Source of the DNA: a virus
DNA: 48,442 nucleotides
IMG/VR virus record: IMGVR_UViG_3300010413_000055
Location: 1-48,442 of that record
Direction: 5' to 3' (one strand)
The notes beneath the pieces were generated by a model. It ran no database searches. It saw only the letters and a list, made by a program, of their open reading frames with translations, and was not told where the DNA came from. Position numbers and translations under genes: made by a program. Positions 1 to 48,442 of the stretch are shown here, piece after piece (the stretch's first letter is position 1; each line of letters begins with the position of its first letter).

Positions 1-144
1 AAGCACAGATACAGAATGCGATTGCGGTTGCAATTACCCAGGCATTCTCACCGGAGAAAAACGCACAAGTTGTACGAGATGTTGTGCGAGCGCACCTTAA
101 CCACAAAGAAAACTCTTACGATAAGGAAACTTTGCTCAGTAAAT
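1..144. repeat. Left copy of an exact 144-bp direct repeat (identical to 48299..48442); circular-contig overlap or terminal redundancy
   Basis: Read directly: aagcacagatacagaatgcg...tttgctcagtaaat is present at both window ends. Confidence 0.95.
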
Positions 145-341
145 CAGTCGGCAAATTGATAAGAGACATCGCTTTAGACGAAGTAAAGAAACTCATCGCA
201 GAACAGGACTCAAGTATCAGGGCTATCGTTCGTGGGTGTCTCGGTGAATCATTTACCGAATCAATCTTAGACCAGCTAAAGATAAGCCTGTCCAATAAAG
301 TCGTAGCAAGCATTCACGTTACAGCGTCACTTGAGGAATAA
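1..341 (+). CDS. Hypothetical protein, 3' part of a junction-spanning gene (starts at ATG 48271; 122 aa in total)
   Basis: Frame is open from base 3 to the stop at 339-341. The same frame is open from ATG 48271 to the window end. The track's GTG 84 start is an artefact of linearisation. Confidence 0.7.
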   Translation, partial: AQIQNAIAVAITQAFSPEKNAQVVRDVVRAHLNHKENSYDKETLLSKSVGKLIRDIALDEVKKLIAEQDSSIRAIVRGCLGESFTESILDQLKISLSNKVVASIHVTASLEE

Positions 342-355
342 CGGGAGGTTATAAG

Positions 356-544
356 ATGAGTGAGTATGGACGGGAATACACGATGAAAAGAATAAAAGCA
401 TTTGGTGTCGAATTCAAATCAGAGTTCCCCTGCGAACGCCAGTACCTCACAAAGAAAGACGACAGACCTGGAACCTGCTCCGAGATGGACGATAAGATAT
501 GCCCTGTAGAACTGGGTGAAAATTGTATACTGGAGGATAAGTAA
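356..544 (+). CDS. Hypothetical 62-aa protein
   Basis: ORF with GGGAGG RBS 8 nt upstream; no motif recognised. Confidence 0.6.
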   Translation: MSEYGREYTMKRIKAFGVEFKSEFPCERQYLTKKDDRPGTCSEMDDKICPVELGENCILEDK

Positions 545-545
545 A

Positions 546-977
546 ATGGGATTAGATACTACTCATGATTGTTGGCATGGAGCATATTCAGCCTTCACCA
601 GATGGCGAAATAAGTTAGCAGAGGTAGCGGGTTACGAAGTGGTTGAGATTACTTATAAGAATGGAGGATTTTCAATACCTCATGAGATGCCATTAGTAGA
701 CTATATTCATGCTGATGTGGATGGTAACCCAGTAAACGGCGACTGGGTAAATGAACCGAGTGACCCTCTTATGGTATTGATATGTCATTCAGATTGCGAT
801 GGTCACATTAAACCAAAGCAAGCTAGAGCGTTATCACTGCGTCTAAAAGAATTATTGCCATTACTACCAGATGAAGATGCAGGTGGACATATCGGTATGT
901 GGAAAGAAAAGACTCAACAATTTATTGATGGACTTGAACTTGCTGTAAAGAAAAGACAGACCGTAAGATTTCATTAA
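546..977 (+). CDS. Hypothetical protein, His/Cys/Asp-rich (HDCWHG, CHSDCDGH)
   Basis: Start moved to ATG 546, immediately after the previous stop (taaaATG); possible metal-binding residues only. Confidence 0.65.
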   Translation: MGLDTTHDCWHGAYSAFTRWRNKLAEVAGYEVVEITYKNGGFSIPHEMPLVDYIHADVDGNPVNGDWVNEPSDPLMVLICHSDCDGHIKPKQARALSLRLKELLPLLPDEDAGGHIGMWKEKTQQFIDGLELAVKKRQTVRFH

Positions 978-1004
978 TAGTTTAAAGTAACTGGAGGAAG
1001 AATA

Positions 1005-1493
1005 ATGGCGATAAAAAGAATAGGTTTTGTAACGGATCTATCAGAAGTTAAAGGGGCAAAAGGCAAGTACCTGAAAGCCACCATCAAACAGGAAGATGGC
1101 AAAGAAGTAACTCATAACATATTCGATGATACTCTTAAAGAGATAATGGGTACTGCCTATGAGAAATCGCTTGCCATCCAGATGTTCCTTGAGAAAAACG
1201 AAAAGGGTTACTGGGATATAACCCAAGCAGATTTGGTTAAAGATAAATTAGAAGAAGAAAATACCCCACAGCCCAAGCCTCAGAACCCACCTGAGACGCC
1301 ACAGAATCAACGAGAAGCACCCTTAACAGAAGCGGCTGTACGATTGGGTGGTGAGAAGGTAGAATCCTATGATAAAAGGGATAGAAGCATGGCGATTTCC
1401 TATAGTAAAGATTGTTTCTGTGCCGGTAGGATAGAACTTGACCAGTTGGAAGAGATGGCTGACAGGTTCTTGAACTATATCTTGATGAAATAA
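1005..1493 (+). CDS. Hypothetical 162-aa protein with Pro/Gln-rich linker (PQPKPQNPPETPQNQ)
   Basis: GGAGG RBS; two-domain layout; function not recognised. Confidence 0.7.
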   Translation: MAIKRIGFVTDLSEVKGAKGKYLKATIKQEDGKEVTHNIFDDTLKEIMGTAYEKSLAIQMFLEKNEKGYWDITQADLVKDKLEEENTPQPKPQNPPETPQNQREAPLTEAAVRLGGEKVESYDKRDRSMAISYSKDCFCAGRIELDQLEEMADRFLNYILMK

Positions 1494-1507
1494 GAAAGGA
1501 GAAAAAC

Positions 1508-1870
1508 ATGACAGAGAAAAAAGAAGGGATGAGGACGTACCTGATTAAGCAGAGGGGTAATCAAGCAAGGAAGATTACTATACCTGAGTCATGGAAGGTT
1601 ACTTACGGTGCTCTGCATGGTGGTGCTGGTCGTGGTAGTGGTATGGATGGCAACGTGCTGAGAATCTACGAGACAAAAGAAAAACAGCGTGCCATATTCA
1701 CAGAGGTAACATCGTTCCTTGACCTGTCGATTCCCGTTCAGAAACTTGTTTACGATGAGGAAGATGTACGCAAGGTAATGAACGAGAAGGGTGTCAAAAA
1801 GTCAGAAGCCCAGTCGATGGTAACTATGAAGTGGGTAGATGAGACACCATTCGACGATGATGATTTCTAG
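1508..1870 (+). CDS. Hypothetical 120-aa protein
   Basis: AAGGAG RBS; acidic C-terminus DDDDF. Confidence 0.7.
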   Translation: MTEKKEGMRTYLIKQRGNQARKITIPESWKVTYGALHGGAGRGSGMDGNVLRIYETKEKQRAIFTEVTSFLDLSIPVQKLVYDEEDVRKVMNEKGVKKSEAQSMVTMKWVDETPFDDDDF

Positions 1871-1963
1871 AGAAAGGAGGTGATTAATAGACTTCCAGAT
1901 TGCCTTGAGGAAATAAAAACGTAGGGTAAACACTTCGAGGCAATCAAGAAGGAGATTAATGAG

Positions 1964-2083
1964 ATGTTATTCAATATAAACTTTCATTCGTGGTCGTTAC
2001 CATTGCAGGTAGTTTTCTTAAAGTCTTATACAACCGTAGTTGGAATCTCAATATTATGCTTCCACTTTTTATTTGAGTGGTAA
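1964..2083 (+). CDS. 39-aa hydrophobic mini-protein, paralogue-like to 43482..43643
   Basis: AAGGAG RBS; C-terminus ISILCFHFLFEW versus ITIMCFYFQFEMW in the other ORF. Confidence 0.4.
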   Translation: MLFNINFHSWSLPLQVVFLKSYTTVVGISILCFHFLFEW

Positions 2084-2182
2084 GGAGATTAAATGATATT
2101 CTGGACAGTATGGATACTATACTCAATAGTTTTTATTACTGTAGGATGTAAGAGATTTATTGTGGAGTAAAGGAGAAGAAAG

Positions 2183-2320
2183 ATGGTAGCGAAAGTACCG
2201 TTGTATAAATGCCCTGAGTGTGGTAAGAAAGGCTTAACGAAGTCGGCTTTCACTGAAGGTTGGCGCACATATACCTATCATCAATGCAGGTACTGTGGGT
2301 ATCAAAGGATATACGGATGA
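2183..2320 (+). CDS. 45-aa zinc-ribbon mini-protein (CPEC...CRYC)
   Basis: AAGGAG RBS; two CxxC pairs; stop overlaps next start (ATGA). Confidence 0.55.
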   Translation: MVAKVPLYKCPECGKKGLTKSAFTEGWRTYTYHQCRYCGYQRIYG

Positions 2321-2751
2321 AATTCGGTCAACAGAATCCCGATAAGAAAAAGAAACCGTTAAACAAAAGGCGCAAGAAACCATCACCTACTATGGCTCTT
2401 AATGCCGAGATGCTTGATCTCTGGTCTCAGTTGGTTAAGTGGAGGGCTGACTATAAATGCGAATACTGCGGTAGCACGGTAAGATTACATTCGCACCACG
2501 TTATAAGGAGAGGCAAGTATCAGTTAAGGTGGGACTTGGAAAACGGTGTGTGCCTCTGCCAGCGTCACCATATGTACGACTCTGACTTCTCTGCTCATAA
2601 GGATGGTGCTCGCTTCACTCAGTGGATTAAAGATAAGCGCGGTGGTAAATGGTGGACTTACTTACAAGACAGATTGGGAGAGGAAACCAACAGGGAGGAA
2701 CAGTTCGAGAGACTGCGTAACTACTCCGATAAAATAAAGGAGATGAAATGA
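2317..2751 (+). CDS. HNH-type nuclease with basic N-terminus
   Basis: CEYCG...LHSHHVIRRG...LENGVCLCQRHH fits the CxxC/HH..N..CxC..HH beta-beta-alpha-Me pattern. Start set at ATG 2317, coupled to the upstream stop. Confidence 0.6.
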   Translation: MKFGQQNPDKKKKPLNKRRKKPSPTMALNAEMLDLWSQLVKWRADYKCEYCGSTVRLHSHHVIRRGKYQLRWDLENGVCLCQRHHMYDSDFSAHKDGARFTQWIKDKRGGKWWTYLQDRLGEETNREEQFERLRNYSDKIKEMK

Positions 2752-2984
2752 ATATAGAAGTAATCCCTGTTAGTGAAATAGAACCAAGATTCTTCTCCGG
2801 TGGGTATTCTACCATGACGGCTGTGATATCTATCGACACCTCGCTTCCTATGAACTACCAGAAAGAGACTATAATCCATGAGATAATAGAGGTATTCACC
2901 CCAAGCCTACCACACGAAAAGGTAGCGGAACTAACAGGATATATATTAGATGGGTTAAATAGACTGGAGGATATAAATGGGTAA
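2748..2984 (+). CDS. Hypothetical 78-aa protein
   Basis: AAGGAG RBS, ATGA coupling. Confidence 0.6.
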   Translation: MNIEVIPVSEIEPRFFSGGYSTMTAVISIDTSLPMNYQKETIIHEIIEVFTPSLPHEKVAELTGYILDGLNRLEDING

Positions 2985-3795
2985 GAGTAAGGAAAAACCA
3001 TACTACAGGCAAGTTGTACTTAAAGACTTGTCACAATTCTCAAAGATATACCTCGTGCCCTTGAGCGACCTGCACGTTATAAATTCAGTAGAAGATATAG
3101 TACAAGGGTACGTTGACTGGATAGCAGAAAGGGATAACGCCTTTACCATCCTTAACGGTGATTTAATTGATGGAGCTACCAAGACATCAGCCTCGGAGTT
3201 ATATGACAACCTTACCACACCCGACAAATCCTACGAAATAGTACGCGATTTGTTACTACCTATCAAGGATAAAGTCTTAATGATTACCCGGGGGAATCAC
3301 TGCGAGAGTATCTACAAGCAGGTAGGTACTGATTACATGGCAAGGATGGCTTACGATCTCGGCAACATACCCTATCAGCCTGATGGCGGAATCCTCGGTA
3401 TGAGATTAAGCCTGCATGACCACGGTGTTATGTGCTGGGTATATGCCGTACATGGATGGGGTGGGGCAAGAACTATAGGGGCTAAGGTTAAAAAAGTTCA
3501 AGACTTGGCTCTGGTAGCAGACGTAGATATATATTGCTTATCTCACGATCACACTCAAAACGTCAACAGGGGTAATATCATGCGTCCACCACGCTCAAAG
3601 ATAACTTTCGATAGACCTAACTACTGGTCAATCTCAAGGAAGTTATTTGTCAACACAGGAGGATTCATACCGTACACAGGGTATGTAAGACGTAAGGGGT
3701 ACACACCTCAAGACTTGGGTACACCACGTATAAGGATAGAAGTGCAATACAGCCATCAGGAAAGTTACCACCTGGATTTGCATTCAAGTATATAA
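2977..3795 (+). CDS. Calcineurin-like metallophosphoesterase (NinI/protein-phosphatase-like)
   Basis: Ordered motifs SDLHV, NGDLID, RGNHCE, VHGWGG, LSHDHT. Confidence 0.8.
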   Translation: MGKSKEKPYYRQVVLKDLSQFSKIYLVPLSDLHVINSVEDIVQGYVDWIAERDNAFTILNGDLIDGATKTSASELYDNLTTPDKSYEIVRDLLLPIKDKVLMITRGNHCESIYKQVGTDYMARMAYDLGNIPYQPDGGILGMRLSLHDHGVMCWVYAVHGWGGARTIGAKVKKVQDLALVADVDIYCLSHDHTQNVNRGNIMRPPRSKITFDRPNYWSISRKLFVNTGGFIPYTGYVRRKGYTPQDLGTPRIRIEVQYSHQESYHLDLHSSI

Positions 3796-18714: not shown

Positions 18715-19470
18715 TTATAGCATTCCTTGAATTTTATTAAGCCTTTCAATATTGGCTTCCGTGAGTGGTAAGCTGCCATCAGTCATAGCTTCTACAAAAG
18801 CTGCATCCGATGTATTGCCACCTCCACCCTGTTCCGTGTTCACAGACTCAAGACCTGCGTCTATCCTGACTTTCCTGACACTATTTTCAATTTCGGCTTT
18901 AATCTCTTCTCTCAGTTTACTTACTTCTTTGGAGCTATCTTCTTTAACTATCTTGGTTATCGAAGCCGAGAACTTGTTTAAACCAGCTACAAGGTCATCA
19001 CCTTGATCCCCCCAGTTTATCCTCGGGTCATCTCTGGTTAGTCCAGCATTTGCTATCATGCTGTCCTGAAGTTCCTTTACGCTCTCAAAGTATTTCTCCT
19101 GAGCTTGCCTCTGAGATTCCTGCTGTGCAGCAGTCTGTGTCAGTTGGTCTTTCGCTCTGTAGGTGTTTAGTTCTATCCTCTCCCTGTCTTCTTCAGGAAG
19201 AGTGTTCAAACTTGTCTTGTAAGCAGCCGCCTCCGCTTCTGCTCTCTCCCTCGCTAATCTTTCGTTACGATTTCTTTCCTGTTGAGCCTGGAGTTCTCTA
19301 CGCCCAGTCTCCTTTGCCTGCTCTACGGCTGACTTCAGCATCTCCTGAATCTTTGCCTCCTGGTCTGCCGTAAATGCTGGTTGCGCCACCTCTTCTTTCG
19401 GTGTTTCAACCGGAACAGTCTCTTGGGTTTGTTCCTGAGTCTGCTCTTCGTTAGCCTGTTCTAACGTCAT
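18715..19470 (-). CDS. Scaffolding protein (acidic, Glu/Gln/Ala-rich coiled coil)
   Basis: Start set at ATG 19470 (MTLEQANEE) behind a strong AAAAGGAGGGGG RBS. The longer track ORF would read through the terminator. Confidence 0.6.
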   Translation of the reverse strand: MTLEQANEEQTQEQTQETVPVETPKEEVAQPAFTADQEAKIQEMLKSAVEQAKETGRRELQAQQERNRNERLARERAEAEAAAYKTSLNTLPEEDRERIELNTYRAKDQLTQTAAQQESQRQAQEKYFESVKELQDSMIANAGLTRDDPRINWGDQGDDLVAGLNKFSASITKIVKEDSSKEVSKLREEIKAEIENSVRKVRIDAGLESVNTEQGGGGNTSDAAFVEAMTDGSLPLTEANIERLNKIQGML

Positions 19471-19491
19471 CGTCCCCCTCCTTTTACAAAA

Positions 19492-19533
19492 TAAAAAAAA
19501 ACCGCATCCGGTCACTATGGACTCAAATGCGGT
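19492..19533 (-). terminator. Rho-independent terminator-like hairpin just upstream of the scaffold RBS
   Basis: Minus-strand ACCGCAT-19 nt-ATGCGGT followed by T9. Confidence 0.55.
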
Positions 19534-19576
19534 CACTGATACGGACACTGTATTCGATTGTAAAGGTTCTAAATAT

Positions 19577-33666: not shown

Positions 33667-35425
33667 CGTTACCTTGACCCATAGAACCCATAGGACTCAT
33701 TGGTTGCGCAGGAGTGTTTGGCTGTCCTCTTCCCTGTACACTCGCACCAGGCTGTCCGGGTGCCTGCCCCATAGTAGCCATAGGATTATTCGGGTCTATC
33801 ATGGCAGGCATGCCTTCATTAGCCAAGGCTTGATGTATCGCAGGTAAGACGTGCTGCATCACCATCTGTAGGAATACCGGATTATACAGTACAGCTTCCA
33901 CCATATCACGTTTCTCCATAGAGTCTGCATCCATATCCCCACGTCTGTCTCTAGCCCACCGTTTATTACCCAGCCCTATCTCTAATGCTCTGTAATCGTC
34001 TTCATGCCGTCTATATTCGTCTTCCTCTGATATAGGTGCGAATTCCACAGAGATGTTAAAAGGTTCTCTGAGTTTTTCCTTTTTAATCATCACATCGAAT
34101 TCATCCTCTGGGGTACGTGACCATACCTCAAAATCACCTGGTATCTTATTCTTGACTAACATGGCACACTTGGTTAAAATCTGTGCCCACCCATTCTGAA
34201 ACGCAGGTGCAGCATATTCATAGATAGCCGAAGCCTCTGCTGTAATCAATCGTCTGTCGGCACCACTGCGTACACCCTGCTCCGCAAGTCCCCTCGCACT
34301 CCTTGGAGCAGCATGAGCAGAGATATAATCATGTGTAGTTGCTAACTGTCTCCATGAAGATTCCGGTGTTACCTTGTTTTCCCATTCATGTATTACAACA
34401 CCCTCCGGCATTTGTTCGTATTCACCATATTTGAAAGACCAATCAGGAATAGCAACACGATTTGGATTTTCTATCCAACCACCCTTCATAGTTTCTTTTT
34501 TCATAAGGATATCGTTTAGAGTGTAATTCGTAGACTCTGAAACAAGCAAATCCTTAATCTTCCTGATAAGACCAACATATCTATTCTCGGGTGTATTGTC
34601 TTTGTCTACATATCCAAGACCCGATTCTATTAGAGTATACGGGTTGAATCCGTAACCATGTTCTATCACACCAAGAACCATCTCATCATCCACGAATTCG
34701 GCACGATACCTGTCAGTCCAGTAAGAGAATGTCTCTACTTCCTCACTCGGGTCGATTTCTCTTTTCGGTTTGAATTTCGGCCATATCCTCTTAACATCGT
34801 AGAGTTTTCTCTTATGCCACTCGATAACGTAGTAATCACCACCGGTATAGGGATCGGGCATTATATGATATGGGTTCACTGCCTGTATTGCTATGGGTAG
34901 GGACAGGTGCTGACCTGAACGCCACTCATCCAACCGCCCTGCGTAATCGCTTTCGCTTTCACCGTCTTTTTGTTCCGGCTTATCTACCCACCTGTCCACA
35001 TCCCATATCGTCTTAAAGACAGCCAATCCATGTAACCAGTAATGTTTAGCCCCCAAGTGAGAAGGTGCAATCCTTGATTCTACATTGATACCGTGTATGA
35101 CACCACGACCTAACTTCCTGAGCATGGATGCGGCGTCAACATCTACTTTCTTATCACTCTTGGGGACAGTCTTAACTCTTGCGTTGAATATGTTAGTGTG
35201 GTTTACACCCGTATCTACCACATCTCTTGCGGTAGGCAGGATTACGATATCTTTCTTGAATTGATTTGGTACGTTGAGTTTGTCTTTGAAGTTAAGTTCG
35301 TAGAATGCTTCGTCTTCTTCATACTCTGTCTGTAAAGCACCATACTTTTCCTTGCAGAGTTGGAACTGCTCCATGATAGCTTCTTTATCAGGCTTATCGT
35401 TGCGCTTCGGCATAATTCCTTTCAC
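33635..35425 (-). CDS. Portal protein
   Basis: 596 aa immediately downstream of, and overlapping, the large terminase gene; low-complexity C-terminal tail. Confidence 0.7.
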   Translation of the reverse strand: MKGIMPKRNDKPDKEAIMEQFQLCKEKYGALQTEYEEDEAFYELNFKDKLNVPNQFKKDIVILPTARDVVDTGVNHTNIFNARVKTVPKSDKKVDVDAASMLRKLGRGVIHGINVESRIAPSHLGAKHYWLHGLAVFKTIWDVDRWVDKPEQKDGESESDYAGRLDEWRSGQHLSLPIAIQAVNPYHIMPDPYTGGDYYVIEWHKRKLYDVKRIWPKFKPKREIDPSEEVETFSYWTDRYRAEFVDDEMVLGVIEHGYGFNPYTLIESGLGYVDKDNTPENRYVGLIRKIKDLLVSESTNYTLNDILMKKETMKGGWIENPNRVAIPDWSFKYGEYEQMPEGVVIHEWENKVTPESSWRQLATTHDYISAHAAPRSARGLAEQGVRSGADRRLITAEASAIYEYAAPAFQNGWAQILTKCAMLVKNKIPGDFEVWSRTPEDEFDVMIKKEKLREPFNISVEFAPISEEDEYRRHEDDYRALEIGLGNKRWARDRRGDMDADSMEKRDMVEAVLYNPVFLQMVMQHVLPAIHQALANEGMPAMIDPNNPMATMGQAPGQPGASVQGRGQPNTPAQPMSPMGSMGQGNGGGGNTLYGT

Positions 35426-37019
35426 TCCAATGCCTCAAGACCTCAGGTACGTCTCCCTTACTGAAGTCAAGGGTTTTAACAGGATTCATATTCATTTCTA
35501 CCGCATCCCGCCTCTTCAAGTTCGCTATCCCTACAGCTATTACATAGTCATCGTGTGTACCACTCTGTGCTTCTATTCTACCACCTAATTTATCTTTATC
35601 ATAGTTCCTGATTAAGTTAAAGAAGTGGTCTAAACCTTTTTTGTTGTATATCCTTATAGTAGTATCATTTATCGCAGAAATCAAGTTCCCGAACAAATCC
35701 GCTCTGGAACTTTCATTTGTAGTGAATCCAACTTTTCTTATCTCATTAGTATCATCAAGTCTGCTGAAACTCACTTCACCCCTGTGGCCCAGTTTTCTGT
35801 AACCAAGCTCAACTGCTTTGTGGATGACAGACCTGCCACCACCTGCTGTATTATTTTCTATCCACCACCATGGATTCCTGAAATGTTTTAAAAGATTTAT
35901 CGACATCTCAGCGAAATCATCCGGGTTGTGCGTATTGGTCATCACATCGGCTACTACATCACCGTGGTCATCCATAACGACGGTCACAGAGTAGTCACCA
36001 CCTAAACCCCATCCCACATCTGAAGCAGCAACATATTTACCGCCAAGATGAAAATCCTTATAAATCTTAACAGGTGGTTTGAGTTCCCAACCCTCGTTTA
36101 TATGACCTTTAACATCTTCCAGCATTAATTTTAACACACCGTGGTCGAATACTGCTACACTCTGAGACATAGAGAGTGCTTCCTTGATAGAGTGAGGGTA
36201 GTTCTTAGCCATGTAAAGTTCCGGTGAAAGTTTAGCCAATTCTCTATCAGGGATACTTCTCTTCGTCCTCTCGTACCACTCCTGAGTTCGGTTAGGCACT
36301 ACATCCCATGAGAAAAACAACGGGTAAAATCCATTCTTATCTTCAAGAGCGTCCTGAAACAATGCGGTAGCAAGGTTATCGTTACCAAACGGGTCGGCAG
36401 TGAAGATTGATATAACCTGACCGCCACCGTCGATAGTAGGTTTGGCGTGTGTGTAGTTCTGGTCAGCGTAGTCATGCTTGGCGTGTTCATCCCACACAAG
36501 TATTGAAGCAGTTTCACCGATACCGGCAGAAGGGGTAGACGGGAACGCCTTGATAACACTCTTGGTCATAGGCCATCCTATAGATTCAGTAGAATCTGGG
36601 TCGAGTTTCCACTTATAGAAATTCGGAAGCTGGTCAAATACATTCCTGCATTTCTTTAAAAGAGCCTTGGCTTCATCCTGACCTTGTGAGAATAGAAGTA
36701 TGTTGGCAGCTACATGATTCAAGGCATACCACGTAACGTACACAGCTACGATAGTCGATAGCCCTATCTGGCGAGCCTTGAGGATGGTTATGAGTTTCTC
36801 CCTGAGGAATGTAGCCATCGTTTCCTTGGTATGTTCCCACATCTCGATAGGTACGATACTCTCTGATGGTTCACCAGGTTTGGGAGGGCTGACGATCCTT
36901 ACCCATTTCATGAAGTGCATGAAAGACCTTGCACATAGAGCCCTCTCCTTTAACCAGAGTTGAGTTTCCTCTTCGGTTAATTCCTCTGGTTCTTTATAAG
37001 CACAGTCTTCTATAGTCAA
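35394..37019 (-). CDS. terL: Terminase large subunit
   Basis: Walker A-type KARQIGLST; Walker B ILVWDEHA; C-terminal nuclease-size half; apparent TTG start. Confidence 0.85.
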   Translation of the reverse strand: MTIEDCAYKEPEELTEEETQLWLKERALCARSFMHFMKWVRIVSPPKPGEPSESIVPIEMWEHTKETMATFLREKLITILKARQIGLSTIVAVYVTWYALNHVAANILLFSQGQDEAKALLKKCRNVFDQLPNFYKWKLDPDSTESIGWPMTKSVIKAFPSTPSAGIGETASILVWDEHAKHDYADQNYTHAKPTIDGGGQVISIFTADPFGNDNLATALFQDALEDKNGFYPLFFSWDVVPNRTQEWYERTKRSIPDRELAKLSPELYMAKNYPHSIKEALSMSQSVAVFDHGVLKLMLEDVKGHINEGWELKPPVKIYKDFHLGGKYVAASDVGWGLGGDYSVTVVMDDHGDVVADVMTNTHNPDDFAEMSINLLKHFRNPWWWIENNTAGGGRSVIHKAVELGYRKLGHRGEVSFSRLDDTNEIRKVGFTTNESSRADLFGNLISAINDTTIRIYNKKGLDHFFNLIRNYDKDKLGGRIEAQSGTHDDYVIAVGIANLKRRDAVEMNMNPVKTLDFSKGDVPEVLRHWSERNYAEAQR

Positions 37020-44492: not shown

Positions 44493-45380
44493 CTAATCGG
44501 CATCCATGATGTTTACGTAGTTCACACCACCTACCAGTGAGTATGTCCACTCTTTTCCTTTAGGGCTAACAGTCACACCATCAGCCCAGTTCTTCCCAAC
44601 AACCAGTTTAGCTGAGTTAGATTCCAATGCCACCGCTATCCTAGCTTTCTCCAACATACCTTCACCACCTCGGGGATAATCAATACCAAAACTTTTCTGA
44701 CAAGCTATGAATGCTACTCCATTCTCTAATTTATCATATATCTTGCGAATCAATCCCACACCTTGATAGTATTCGCTGTCAGTTCCGCCAAGCTCTAAGA
44801 AATCAATGAGATTTAAACCGTTAGGGTCAATAACTTCATCAAAATCATACGACCTTTCATAAGCCTCAATAGCCCACTCATCTAAGGCAATACCCTTGAC
44901 CTTAGACAACCTTTCAGCAAGCTCGGCATCTACCATCTCACTAGAAAAGTAAAGAGTCCTATGCTTCCTCATGTTCATCCTGGCAATATTGATAAGAAAA
45001 GCACTCTTGCCAGCATCCTTCGTCCCCATCACAATACCGATATTCTTTCTATGAAGATAACAATACTTGTGAATACCGAAAGGCAACTCTAACTCAAACC
45101 TGCTTCTATCAGCATTGAGGAAATTTATCCGGGTAAGACTATCATCAATGAATTTGAAACCCTTGCCGTTTCTTACTACACGATCCCTCTTCTTGTTTAC
45201 CGTAGTCCAGTTATAAAGTACATCATTTATCGCTTTCCTAAAGGAAGCGTGGTTCGACATCGTAGGACTGACATTACACATCTTGTATATCTCATCCCGA
45301 GTCAATGTCTCGCCCTTAACCATCGGAAGTATCTCCAATAGTTTATCGGAAGCTCTGTCGTATAATCCTTTCTCAGGCAT
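44493..45380 (-). CDS. RecA-fold P-loop replication protein (DnaB-C/RepA-like helicase or initiator)
   Basis: Walker A GTKDAGKS; Walker B-like LNLIDFLE; directly downstream of the iteron array. Confidence 0.55.
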   Translation of the reverse strand: MPEKGLYDRASDKLLEILPMVKGETLTRDEIYKMCNVSPTMSNHASFRKAINDVLYNWTTVNKKRDRVVRNGKGFKFIDDSLTRINFLNADRSRFELELPFGIHKYCYLHRKNIGIVMGTKDAGKSAFLINIARMNMRKHRTLYFSSEMVDAELAERLSKVKGIALDEWAIEAYERSYDFDEVIDPNGLNLIDFLELGGTDSEYYQGVGLIRKIYDKLENGVAFIACQKSFGIDYPRGGEGMLEKARIAVALESNSAKLVVGKNWADGVTVSPKGKEWTYSLVGGVNYVNIMDAD

Positions 45381-45381
45381 A

Positions 45382-45493
45382 AATACTAAGAATTTTCAGC
45401 AAAATACTAAGAATCGACTAAGACTTATAAGAATACTAAGTTTACTAAGAATACTAAGACCCATGACTAGATGTACTAAGATTACTAAGTATT
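45382..45493 (+). repeat. Iteron array: 8 exact ACTAAG cores (4 as AATACTAAG), all in the same orientation
   Basis: Cores at 45385, 45406, 45417, 45435, 45444, 45453, 45475 and 45484, counted by hand. Confidence 0.85.
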
Positions 45494-45516
45494 GTGCCTA
45501 CCGTTCCTTTACCTCC

Positions 45517-45565
45517 TTTATGAAATCTTTATGAATTATTTATGAAATCTTTATAACTTTATGTC
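45517..45565 (+). repeat. AT-rich TTTATGAA repeats with 11-bp phasing (DNA-unwinding/bending element candidate)
   Basis: Copies at 45517, 45528 and 45539, degenerate at 45550 and 45558. Confidence 0.7.
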
Positions 45566-46088: not shown

Positions 46089-46241
46089 CTATTTCTTGTT
46101 GTTTCTGCCGTTGATAGCATACCAGACAGTTGTAATCGAACAGTCGAACTTCTCAGCTAGTTCCTTGAGTGTCCAGCCCGGCATACTCTCGTAGGTCGCC
46201 TTGATTCTCTGGTTACGCCATTTGACTTTTACTCTCTTCAT
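46089..46241 (-). CDS. 50-aa helix-turn-helix regulator, probably translated from a leaderless mRNA
   Basis: WTLKELAEKFDCSITTVWYAING HTH. ATG 46241 lies 7 nt downstream of a TAGAAT -10 box. The longer track ORF (to 46289) would contain its own promoter. Confidence 0.55.
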   Translation of the reverse strand: MKRVKVKWRNQRIKATYESMPGWTLKELAEKFDCSITTVWYAINGRNNKK

Positions 46242-46248
46242 GGTTATT

Positions 46249-46277
46249 ATTCTAGAACATCCGAGATTATTTGTCAA
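46249..46277 (-). promoter_or_regulatory. Near-consensus sigma70 promoter, leftward (TTGACA - 17 nt - TAGAAT)
   Basis: Reverse complement of 46272-46277 and 46249-46254. Confidence 0.65.
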
Positions 46278-46319
46278 TATTTTTTTCACTTATCTTTCCA
46301 TTCAAGGCTAAAATAACTA

Positions 46320-46347
46320 TTGACTTTTCACAATATAGGCGTATAAT
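46320..46347 (+). promoter_or_regulatory. Near-consensus sigma70 promoter, rightward (TTGACT - 16 nt - TATAAT)
   Basis: Read directly; back-to-back with the leftward promoter, 42 nt between the -35 boxes. Confidence 0.7.
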
Positions 46348-46353
46348 AGAGGT

Positions 46354-46816
46354 ATACCTTAACAATAGAATATCGGCTGGTGTTGACTGAGTTTGTACAA
46401 AGGTTGATGTGTAGCGATGAAAGGCTGCAACGATTGGCTAGACCGGCGGAAAGGAGCCATGACCATTTGATTCTGTCGGCCACGGGTTAGAATCCCGTAC
46501 ACCAGCTAAATACCGGATGCCGAAGTTTAGTGCGAGTAAGTCCCGGGCTCCGGGCATACCACTGGCTACCATCCGGTATAGGGAAGTGGGGTGAAACTAA
46601 TACTACACTACTGGTATCGTAATGCGGTTTATCGGGAGTAGCCCCACTTCCTGAGAACATTAATAATTGAGTGAGGACGGTGGCGGAATAGACGGATAAA
46701 GTAGACGCTATGAGGCGGTAAGTGGTAGCAAGCCTCAGTGTGGATACCAGCACATCTAGGGTGACAACCGGAAATCCCTAGACGTCCTCCCTGAGTTATT
46801 AATACTGGAGGTTAGA
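46354..46816 (+). ncRNA. Candidate large structured RNA or structured 5' leader (~460 nt), class unknown
   Basis: No plus-strand ORF of 60 aa or more. Visibly higher G+C than its flanks. At least six helices of 6-10 bp: 46376-83/46499-506, 46482-86/46494-98, 46510-19/46570-79, 46582-91/46642-51, 46711-16/46732-37 and 46755-61/46776-82. A possible long-range pair joins 46611-18 and 46743-50. Confidence 0.5.
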
Positions 46817-47062
46817 ATGATTGAGGAAGAAATCGCACAGATAATATATCAAAGTAGCGGTACAAGCCTTGAGTGGATTCAGGTTAAGGATCATTACACA
46901 AATACCACCAAATCAATAGTTGACATCATAAGAGCTAAGATAGCAGAGGTAGAGAATCCATATAGTGGTGCGAGTGAAACTTTTAGCCCACGTCAAGATG
47001 CTTATGAAAGGTGCCGCCAAACCTTACTCGCTCTATTCGATACCGATAAGGAGGTAAAGTAA
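46817..47062 (+). CDS. 81-aa hypothetical protein
   Basis: GGAGG RBS. Confidence 0.65.
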   Translation: MIEEEIAQIIYQSSGTSLEWIQVKDHYTNTTKSIVDIIRAKIAEVENPYSGASETFSPRQDAYERCRQTLLALFDTDKEVK

Positions 47063-48295: not shown

Positions 48296-48442
48296 GGGAA
48301 GCACAGATACAGAATGCGATTGCGGTTGCAATTACCCAGGCATTCTCACCGGAGAAAAACGCACAAGTTGTACGAGATGTTGTGCGAGCGCACCTTAACC
48401 ACAAAGAAAACTCTTACGATAAGGAAACTTTGCTCAGTAAAT
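48271..48442 (+). CDS. 5' part of the junction-spanning gene (continues at base 1, stop at 341)
   Basis: ATG 48271 ([23 protein letters not shown]...) with GGAGGAAGAAGC upstream; frame open to the window end. Confidence 0.65.
48299..48442. repeat. Right copy of the 144-bp exact direct repeat
   Basis: Identical to 1..144. Confidence 0.95.

Follow-up and report, generated by a model that had tools for sequence, protein, structure and literature searches.

A 463-nt stretch behind an early promoter of a metagenomic tailed phage: a possible mosaic untranslated leader with a zinc-ribbon gene relic and hairpin modules

The DNA analyzed here (hereafter the window) is a stretch of 48,442 nt, positions 1 to 48,442 of the IMG/VR virus record IMGVR_UViG_3300010413_000055. 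The subject is the region at 46354-46816 on its plus strand, 463 nt that follow an early promoter and precede the first intact gene of an operon, which the original prediction had proposed to be a large structured non-coding RNA (ncRNA) or a regulatory leader. The source genome is a circular metagenomic tailed phage of ~48.3 kb. The assembly is shown to be circular or terminally redundant by an exact direct repeat of 144 nt at its two ends (window 1-144 and 48299-48442), and the rightward early operon therefore runs on from 48442 into 1-3795. An identical contig is also present in Logan run SRR14699974. A long late operon lies on the minus strand (terminase large subunit at 35394-37019), and two divergent early units meet at 46.25-46.35 kb. 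The leftward unit carries an HTH protein, two small open reading frames (ORFs) and a DnaB-like helicase, and the rightward unit comprises the 463-nt region, an orphan gene of 81 amino acids (aa), a 71-aa Cys-rich protein, YopX, an HNH endonuclease, an exonuclease and others. The features at this junction are as follows.

44493-45380, minus strand: DnaB-like helicase gene
46089-46289, minus strand: HTH protein gene
46249..46277, minus strand: divergent promoter TTGACA-17-TAGAAT, driving the minus-strand operon (HTH gene, then helicase)
46320..46347, plus strand: sigma-70-type early promoter TTGACT-16-TATAAT
46356..46372, plus strand: conserved 17-mer ACCTTAACAATAGAATA, a copy of (T)AGCACCTTAACAATAGAATA with the first four bases changed
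46375-46507, plus strand: D1, predicted domain with a 9-bp outer helix (46375-83 with 46499-507) and three hairpins inside, one of them T-arm-like
46396..46509, plus strand: putative zinc-ribbon gene relic (pseudogene), including the T-arm-like hairpin at 46481-46498
46510-46579, plus strand: D2, hairpin module of 70 nt with a perfect 10-bp stem ATACCGGATG/CATCCGGTAT around exactly 50 nt
46582-46651, plus strand: D3, hairpin module of 70 nt with a perfect 10-bp stem GGAAGTGGGG/CCCCACTTCC around exactly 50 nt
46659-46803, plus strand: D4, module of 145 nt with a 21-bp closing helix around a multi-hairpin junction
46808-12, plus strand: Shine-Dalgarno (SD) sequence GGAGG preceding the ATG at 46817
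46817-47062, plus strand: 81-aa orphan, first intact gene of the operon (46808..47062 with its SD)

Examination of the sequence confirmed the near-consensus early promoter, which matches the consensus at 11 of 12 positions, and transcription would start near 46354. The predicted lack of a credible plus-strand ORF before the ATG at 46817 was also borne out (the longest are 25-39 aa, none with an SD). Each plus frame of the region contains 10-18 stops, and because all three kinds occur in every one of them, alternative genetic codes rescue no ORF; such a code was rejected, TGA being an ordinary stop here. No Pfam domain was found across the six frames of the region, even with stops masked. An 88-aa ORF on the minus strand was rejected as a real gene, since it belongs to no family and obtained only low-complexity matches among 1.84 billion representatives. 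The plus frame across 46579-46728, which covers part of D3-D4, has coding-like codon usage (0.29, against an in-frame mean of 0.33), and no relatives of it were detectable. No terminator was found between the promoter and the SD and ATG at 46817, and the 81-aa downstream protein has no homologue in protein searches. The GC content is 0.49 in the region, 0.43 in the genome and ~0.38 in the flanks; the claim that the region is more G+C-rich than the rest of the genome therefore holds for its neighbourhood but not genome-wide, where windows over structural (late) genes reach 0.48-0.50.

About the first quarter of the region (~115-130 nt) appears to derive from a protein-coding gene. The groundwater phage contig L013 carries an intact, uncalled ORF of 49 codons (L013:6118-6264, plus strand; MKLLQTLTYKGYKCRRCGHQWRPRRKVQPTICPKCKTKLWNTRKKAKKE), whose product is a zinc ribbon of the CxxC...CPxC type (CRRCGHQW...CPKCKT). 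This ORF has a paralogue at L013:3062-3157 on the minus strand (58% identity, E 1e-10) and therefore belongs to a real family; weak PHROG zinc-ribbon matches, an FmdB-like family among them, were also obtained. The two genes form a small-protein family overlooked by the gene caller. Nucleotide comparison of the region with the divergent-promoter gap of L013 gave a Smith-Waterman score of 38 (23.3+-2.7 in shuffles, 0 of 300 reaching 38), and comparison of D1 with the ORF at L013:6118-6264 gave 38 against 17.4+-2.8 (maximum 32, none of 2000 shuffles reaching it). For the homologous stretch, 46396-46500, compared with the zinc-ribbon ORF of L013/L014, z was 5.4 to 7.4 and overall none of 2300 shuffles reached the score, while in 28 control comparisons with other loci z was never above 2.6. 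We consider it rather probable that 46396-46509 is homologous to the L013 zinc-ribbon gene.

In the frame 46396+3n, the relic reads YKG-stop-CVAMKGCNDWLDRRKGAMTI-stop-FCRPRVRIPYTS-stop, with stops at TGA 46405-07, TGA 46468-70 and TAA 46507-09, and a third in-frame TGA lies upstream at 46384. The frame is kept for ~37 codons, along which the anchors Y-K-G, C, C, W, R-R-K, T-I and C align with L013; the TGA at 46405-07 stands in for a codon and that at 46468-70 for a Cys codon of L013. The relic has neither ATG nor SD. Compared with L013, a frameshift affects its 3' end, and neither CxxC knuckle has survived (spacings of 5 and 1 residues). TGA ends 11 of the 50 genes in this phage and is therefore not recoded. 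The T-arm of the window, ACGGG-UUAGAAU-CCCGU, aligns to the L013 codons for KLWNTR, and complementary counterparts of the D1 outer helix, long hairpin and T-arm were not found in L013. Because of the nucleotide homology, the in-frame stops, the lost knuckles and the absence of these helices from L013, D1 is best read as a pseudogene and its RNA "cloverleaf" as incidental.

The region contains four helix-closed modules in tandem (D1, D2, D3 and D4), and all the complementary segments listed in the original prediction are present in the sequence. The main pairs are the following.

46376-83 with 46499-506, plus strand: 8 bp
46510-19 with 46570-79, plus strand: 10 bp
46582-91 with 46642-51, plus strand: 10 bp
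46611-18 with 46743-50, plus strand: 8 bp
46659-79 with 46783-803, plus strand: complementary arms of 21 nt

By our own count, ~1.6 perfect 8-bp pairs per 460 nt are expected by chance, so that neither the pair suspected of forming a pseudoknot nor the 8-bp outer helix is remarkable by itself. The complementarity of the former is real but at chance level for 8-mers, and long-range pseudoknot pairs were rejected, being no more frequent than chance. The D4 closing helix comprises 18 Watson-Crick pairs, one G-U pair and two mismatches. A gap of 4 nt separates its stem (46659-79 with 46783-803) from the SD at 46808, and one of 13 nt separates it from the ATG; the 3' arm of the helix includes an anti-SD, CCUCC, at 46787-46791, 16 nt upstream of the SD GGAGG. 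In this way, an irregular helix of ~20 bp stands beside the ribosome-binding site (RBS) of an early transcript, which is the sequence arrangement looked for in an RNase III-type hairpin or a translational operator. When the fold is extended into the start of the ORF, the 5' end of the leader (46357-46374) becomes the pairing partner of the SD and AUG (probability 0.5-0.8), and the RBS is thus predicted to be partly sequestered in the folded ensemble.

The fold of the region is statistically unusual and better than chance. Its minimum free energy (MFE) on the plus strand is -160.6 kcal/mol, compared with -140.0+-6.3 in dinucleotide shuffles (z -3.3), and the minus strand of the whole region folds more weakly (-133.1 kcal/mol). 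Against a background of 104 non-overlapping 463-nt windows per strand, 208 in total, the region has the lowest MFE (the next lowest is -153.2), ranks about 4th by z and ranks 2nd for ensemble well-definedness (ensemble diversity and positional entropy). The z scores of the individual modules are -2.2 for D1, -2.7 for D2, -2.9 for D3 and -4.4 for D4, and those of the D2-D4 core (46508-46806) are -3.9 on the plus and -2.5 on the minus strand. Of perfect, non-palindromic inverted repeats (10 nt or longer, within 130 nt), the genome has nine, and two of these adjoin in the region (P about 0.004 for the adjacency by our Poisson estimate).

No known RNA family could be recognized. With the 4227 models of Rfam 15, zero matches were obtained at gathering score over the whole window, and at E<=10, both for 46200-46900 and per domain, only noise was found (E 0.16 to 8.5, scores far under gathering). 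None of the families suggested originally (ROOL, GOLLD, tmRNA, RNase P, group I/II introns and riboswitches) matched, nor was there an Rfam match of the region to T-box, 6S or known phage RNAs. The one trace of interest came from the Rfam tRNA model, which scored 12.5 bits against the T-arm at 46478-46498 (gathering score 29, E 4.8, local). ARAGORN with default settings found no tRNA or tmRNA anywhere in the 48.4-kb genome, and a tRNA, tmRNA or intron-bearing tRNA was rejected, as relaxed ARAGORN gave only poor sub-threshold models. An attP site or host tRNA fragment seems improbable as well: an A occupies the T-loop position of C56 in tRNAs, the proteins scanned (early regions and a few late genes) included no integrase, and the 5' strand is there too.

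Homologue searches yielded no relative of the region in GenBank phages (blastn, megablast), in IMG/VR (exact 20-mer, and translated-frame scans with 12 seeds), or in JGI metagenomes and GTDB genomes (translated-frame scans, 12 seeds), and its six-frame pseudo-protein had no homologue among 5.8 billion predicted proteins; these searches were of the exact-seed (~24 nt), blastn or protein-word type, which may miss distant relatives. The blastn and viral-metagenome comparison suggested in the original prediction thus gave nothing for GenBank phages or IMG/VR. As no homologue exists in the collections searched, there is no covariation to test. Other copies of any module were found neither in the genome nor in the collections searched, and antisense targets of the region within the genome were limited to chance matches.

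The neighbouring helicase has about 60 homologues at 50-67% identity, ~15 of whose contigs (loci within L002-L021) were compared; by nhmmer, the region is present in none of these ~15 related phage contigs. In the relatives, the slot behind the early promoters is short or filled by other insertions, such as an HNH gene, and the slot is therefore a recombination or insertion hot spot. In L003:9700-10171 (plus strand), a 600-nt "gap" behind divergent early promoters holds an uncalled HNH endonuclease gene, whose counterpart is called in the near-identical L004:5225-5629. One candidate for a divergent homologue, L011:1182-1653 (plus strand), is an ORF-free, G-rich gap of 472 nt (MFE -163.5, z -2.9) which opens with the 11-mer ACAATAGAATA common to the window and shares several 8-mers with it as well. 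It was rejected, as its Smith-Waterman score against 300 dinucleotide shuffles had a z of 0.3. This gap is preceded by a Cys-rich 81-aa gene and followed by the next SD and ATG, and its 5' end, with GDNRIE in frame, resembles an HNH-motif fragment; in L007, the shared 11-mer codes for the DNRI of the HNH motif. The region itself was rejected as an HNH-endonuclease pseudogene beyond this short motif, having no significant similarity to eight HNH genes and no Pfam match.

The 17-mer at the beginning of the region, ACCTTAACAATAGAATA, is identical to a 17-mer in the L013/L014 divergent-promoter gap, where it lies on the opposite strand. A 16-mer scan of IMG/VR returned 36 loci, roughly the number expected by chance on our rough estimate. 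The extended form, (T)AGCACCTTAACAATAGAATA, occurs in seven distinct, otherwise unrelated viral contigs, with ~0.14 expected by chance (our estimate). The loci carrying the motif are listed here.

L013:5783-5802, minus strand
L024:8033-8052
L025, L038, L043, L046, L049 and L057

The motif is sharply delimited, 20-21 nt long and found once per contig; it often follows a hairpin, and in most cases the first ORF of an operon begins 40-110 nt further on. It is probably a promoter or regulatory site of a loose phage group, judging from this distribution, and as a reusable by-product of the analysis the element may mark such sites in phages of an unstudied group. About 25 nt downstream of the motif, L013, L024 and L057 have GGGCGGGTAGGRRAGG in common as well.

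Taken together, we favour reading the region as a mosaic untranslated 5' leader of the rightward early operon, with a dead gene and hairpins, instead of a dedicated RNA gene, and place about half of our confidence in this reading. The early promoter would transcribe the region as the leader of the operon. Its start would be a promoter-proximal copy of the 17-21-nt motif that several unrelated phages carry at operon starts. The next part would be the dead zinc-ribbon gene, in which chance or secondary pairings give the "cloverleaf/T-arm" look, and the last part three inverted-repeat hairpin modules of 70, 70 and 145 nt which may act on the RNA. The length of 21 bp is that needed by double-strand-specific RNases, and the lambda N leader and T7 early transcripts undergo RNase III processing. 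The 21-bp D4 stem may accordingly be a double-strand-specific (RNase III-type) processing or stability element, and together with the pairing between 5' end and RBS it could tune translation of the 81-aa gene. Either RNase III-type processing or translational control by the D4 stem would fit its position. The leader half of the original prediction is thus supported by position (early promoter, no terminator, anti-SD hairpin), and the half that proposed an ornate RNA is not.

Several points weigh against this leader. The leader, its ends and any processing are predictions from the DNA sequence, and coding windows of the same genome also reach z of -3 to -7. D2-D4 are without homologues in the collections searched and selection on pairing is unsupported; moreover, their wobble-free perfect 10-bp stems fit DNA-level inverted repeats equally well. 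As to the relic, the protein-level similarity by itself is marginal (57 of 1000 shuffles reach the score, p about 0.06) and the E-value from nhmmer across all loci is 1.8; support for the homology therefore comes from the nucleotide alignment together with a positional prior.

The main rival to the leader reading is that the region has no function at the RNA level, being debris of gene decay and recombination in which the hairpins are DNA-level inverted-repeat insertions (scars, or similar to miniature inverted-repeat transposable elements, MITEs) and the fold is incidental; we regard this as possible, though on balance doubtful. It would account for the demonstrably dead gene in D1, for relatives that lack the region and have other insertions in the same slot, for the lack of homologues in any collection searched, and for the coding-like codon usage at 46579-46728, and each module is indeed bounded by a perfect or near-perfect inverted repeat, with structure on the minus strand too (z -2.5). 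However, it is rare for a phage genome to retain 460 nt of junk right behind a strong promoter and in front of the first gene, and chance can hardly be the whole explanation of a region that has the lowest MFE among 208 windows and ranks second in well-definedness, with an excess on the plus strand. Unlike a mobile MITE, the modules also have no further copies in the genome or the collections. An unlikely alternative is a new orphan structured ncRNA, comprising the whole region or the 300-nt D2-D4 part and working either in trans or, in cis, as a regulator that senses a ligand or a protein. Its core (46508-46806) would then be a new singleton class of structured phage RNA, a sensor or a processed stable RNA, which seems equally unlikely; the three helix-closed modules, with the last stem coupled to the RBS, would have been built beside the decayed gene or by its exaptation. 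The outlying thermodynamics and well-definedness, the clustered helices, the near-consensus promoter in front and the anti-SD within the D4 closing helix, which permits alternative pairing with the SD, are all compatible with such an RNA. Its appeal is reduced by the absence of homologues and hence of covariation, by the absence of the region from all related phages examined, by a quarter that is pseudogene with helices that are not conserved, by a 3' end that no terminator defines, and by the lack of a reverse transcriptase, Ro60, IscB/TnpB or integrase among the scanned proteins (early regions and a few late genes). With no Rfam match, no homologue, relatives without the region and a first quarter that is pseudogene, assignment to ROOL, GOLLD or a new ornate class is unsupported.

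Two further explanations are very improbable. The region might serve replication, as the phage origin or as a primer transcript of the ColE1 RNA II-like or R-loop type, as the replication module is ~0.8 kb away and the cumulative GC-skew minimum falls at 46200-46400. Yet gene orientation changes at the point where the skew does, a probable origin of the classical kind, with iterons and AT-rich sequence, is found elsewhere (45381-45560), the region is transcribed away from it and has no iterons or direct-repeat families, and its single 8-of-9 match to a DnaA box is not part of a cluster. Hidden coding, in which the zinc-ribbon frame is expressed by UGA recoding (selenocysteine or read-through) with the downstream hairpins as recoding signals, has just as little to recommend it: against a frame kept for ~37 codons and one TGA that aligns with a Cys codon of L013 stand the absence of start codon and SD, three in-frame TGAs (counting 46384), the destruction of both CxxC knuckles, the frameshifted 3' end, the use of TGA as an ordinary stop in 11 of 50 genes and the lack of any Pfam match. 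Whatever the role of the region, it offers a caution: a promoter-driven, ORF-free, G+C-enriched and best-folding stretch with a near-canonical T-arm may still have a dead gene as its first quarter. If the modules do control the early operon, the leader would be another case of leader-based control of early genes, in an uncultured phage lineage, with no new principle.

Some observations concern other parts of the genome. The probable origin lies in a 286-nt gap just upstream of the helicase gene, with a GC content of about 0.30 and two sets of iterons.

45381-45498: about ten ACTAAG iterons with 9-nt spacing
45517-45559: four TTTATGAAAT iterons with 11-nt spacing

In L011, analogous ATTCTTCGG iterons lie right after the helicase gene (L011:600-720). 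Among GenBank phages, the helicase is matched by archaeal viruses only: Methanosarcina virus MetMV, at 42% identity, and a Methanomicrobiales virus. Its nearest relatives in metagenomes (50-67% identity) are for the most part contigs without annotation; those that carry a label come from marine sediment and viral metagenomes, and a remoter match (42% identity) is labelled as a Brocadiales (Planctomycetota) metagenome-assembled genome. No close relative of the phage genome was found among GenBank phages by blastn or megablast, and searches for homologues of the flanking 71-aa and HTH proteins produced no useful match. The promoters are of the sigma-70-like type, which speaks for a bacterial host.

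A degenerate second copy of the operon-start motif, AGAACCTTTACAATCGAATA, was detected in the window at 19551-19570 on the minus strand. Downstream of it come, in this order, a hairpin with a U9 intrinsic terminator, an SD and an ATG (19469) which opens a Glu/Gln-rich late gene. The listed 277-aa ORF with a GTG start (18715-19548) probably starts at ATG 19469 instead. This arrangement of motif, terminator and gene (19469-19570, minus strand) can be likened to the antitermination set-up of lambda PR'-tR' (6S RNA), and no other window of the genome reaches a fold z as strong as that of the 463-nt window around it (-6 to -7). In addition, 390 nt at 1870-2260 (plus strand) contain no ORF of at least 100 aa and several SD-preceded mini-ORFs, together with a 13-bp hairpin, GATTGCCTTGAGG...CTTCGAGGCAATC; the 200-nt window at 1754-1953 has a z of -6.1.

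Comparison with known systems places the region as follows. ROOL and GOLLD are RNAs of phages and prophages, "often near tRNA islands", and GOLLD exceeds 800 nt (PMC12286853). The region resembles them in being phage-encoded, ORF-free, helix-rich and several hundred nt long, but it has no covariance-model match even at E<=10, no tRNA island is near it (zero tRNAs in the genome by ARAGORN), it has neither homologues nor covariation, part of it is a pseudogene, and at 463 nt it is shorter than GOLLD, many members of which are >800 nt.

Among phage small zinc-ribbon proteins (CxxC...CPxC), the intact gene at L013:6118-6264 aligns in frame with 46396-46509, whereas the copy in the window has been inactivated by stops, lost knuckles and an absent start codon. 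The CI RNA of P4 and the C4 immunity RNAs of P1/P7 are processed from early leaders. Like them, the region is a structured untranslated stretch behind a constitutive phage promoter, and its tRNA-like feature could invite processing by RNase P; in contrast to them, the Rfam families of these RNAs are unmatched, no significant antisense target is present in the genome, and the tRNA-like feature derives from coding sequence.

The lambda N leader and the RNase III hairpins of T7 early transcripts provide the other basis of comparison. There is no sequence relationship to either, the leader here is roughly twice as long (463 nt), it combines three stacked hairpin modules with a gene relic, its cleavage is a prediction, and no nut/boxB-like element was identified in it, no search aimed at one having been made. 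The likeness lies in the arrangement: a long untranslated stretch directly behind an early promoter, with an irregular stem of ~20 bp just upstream of the first RBS, which is partly occluded.

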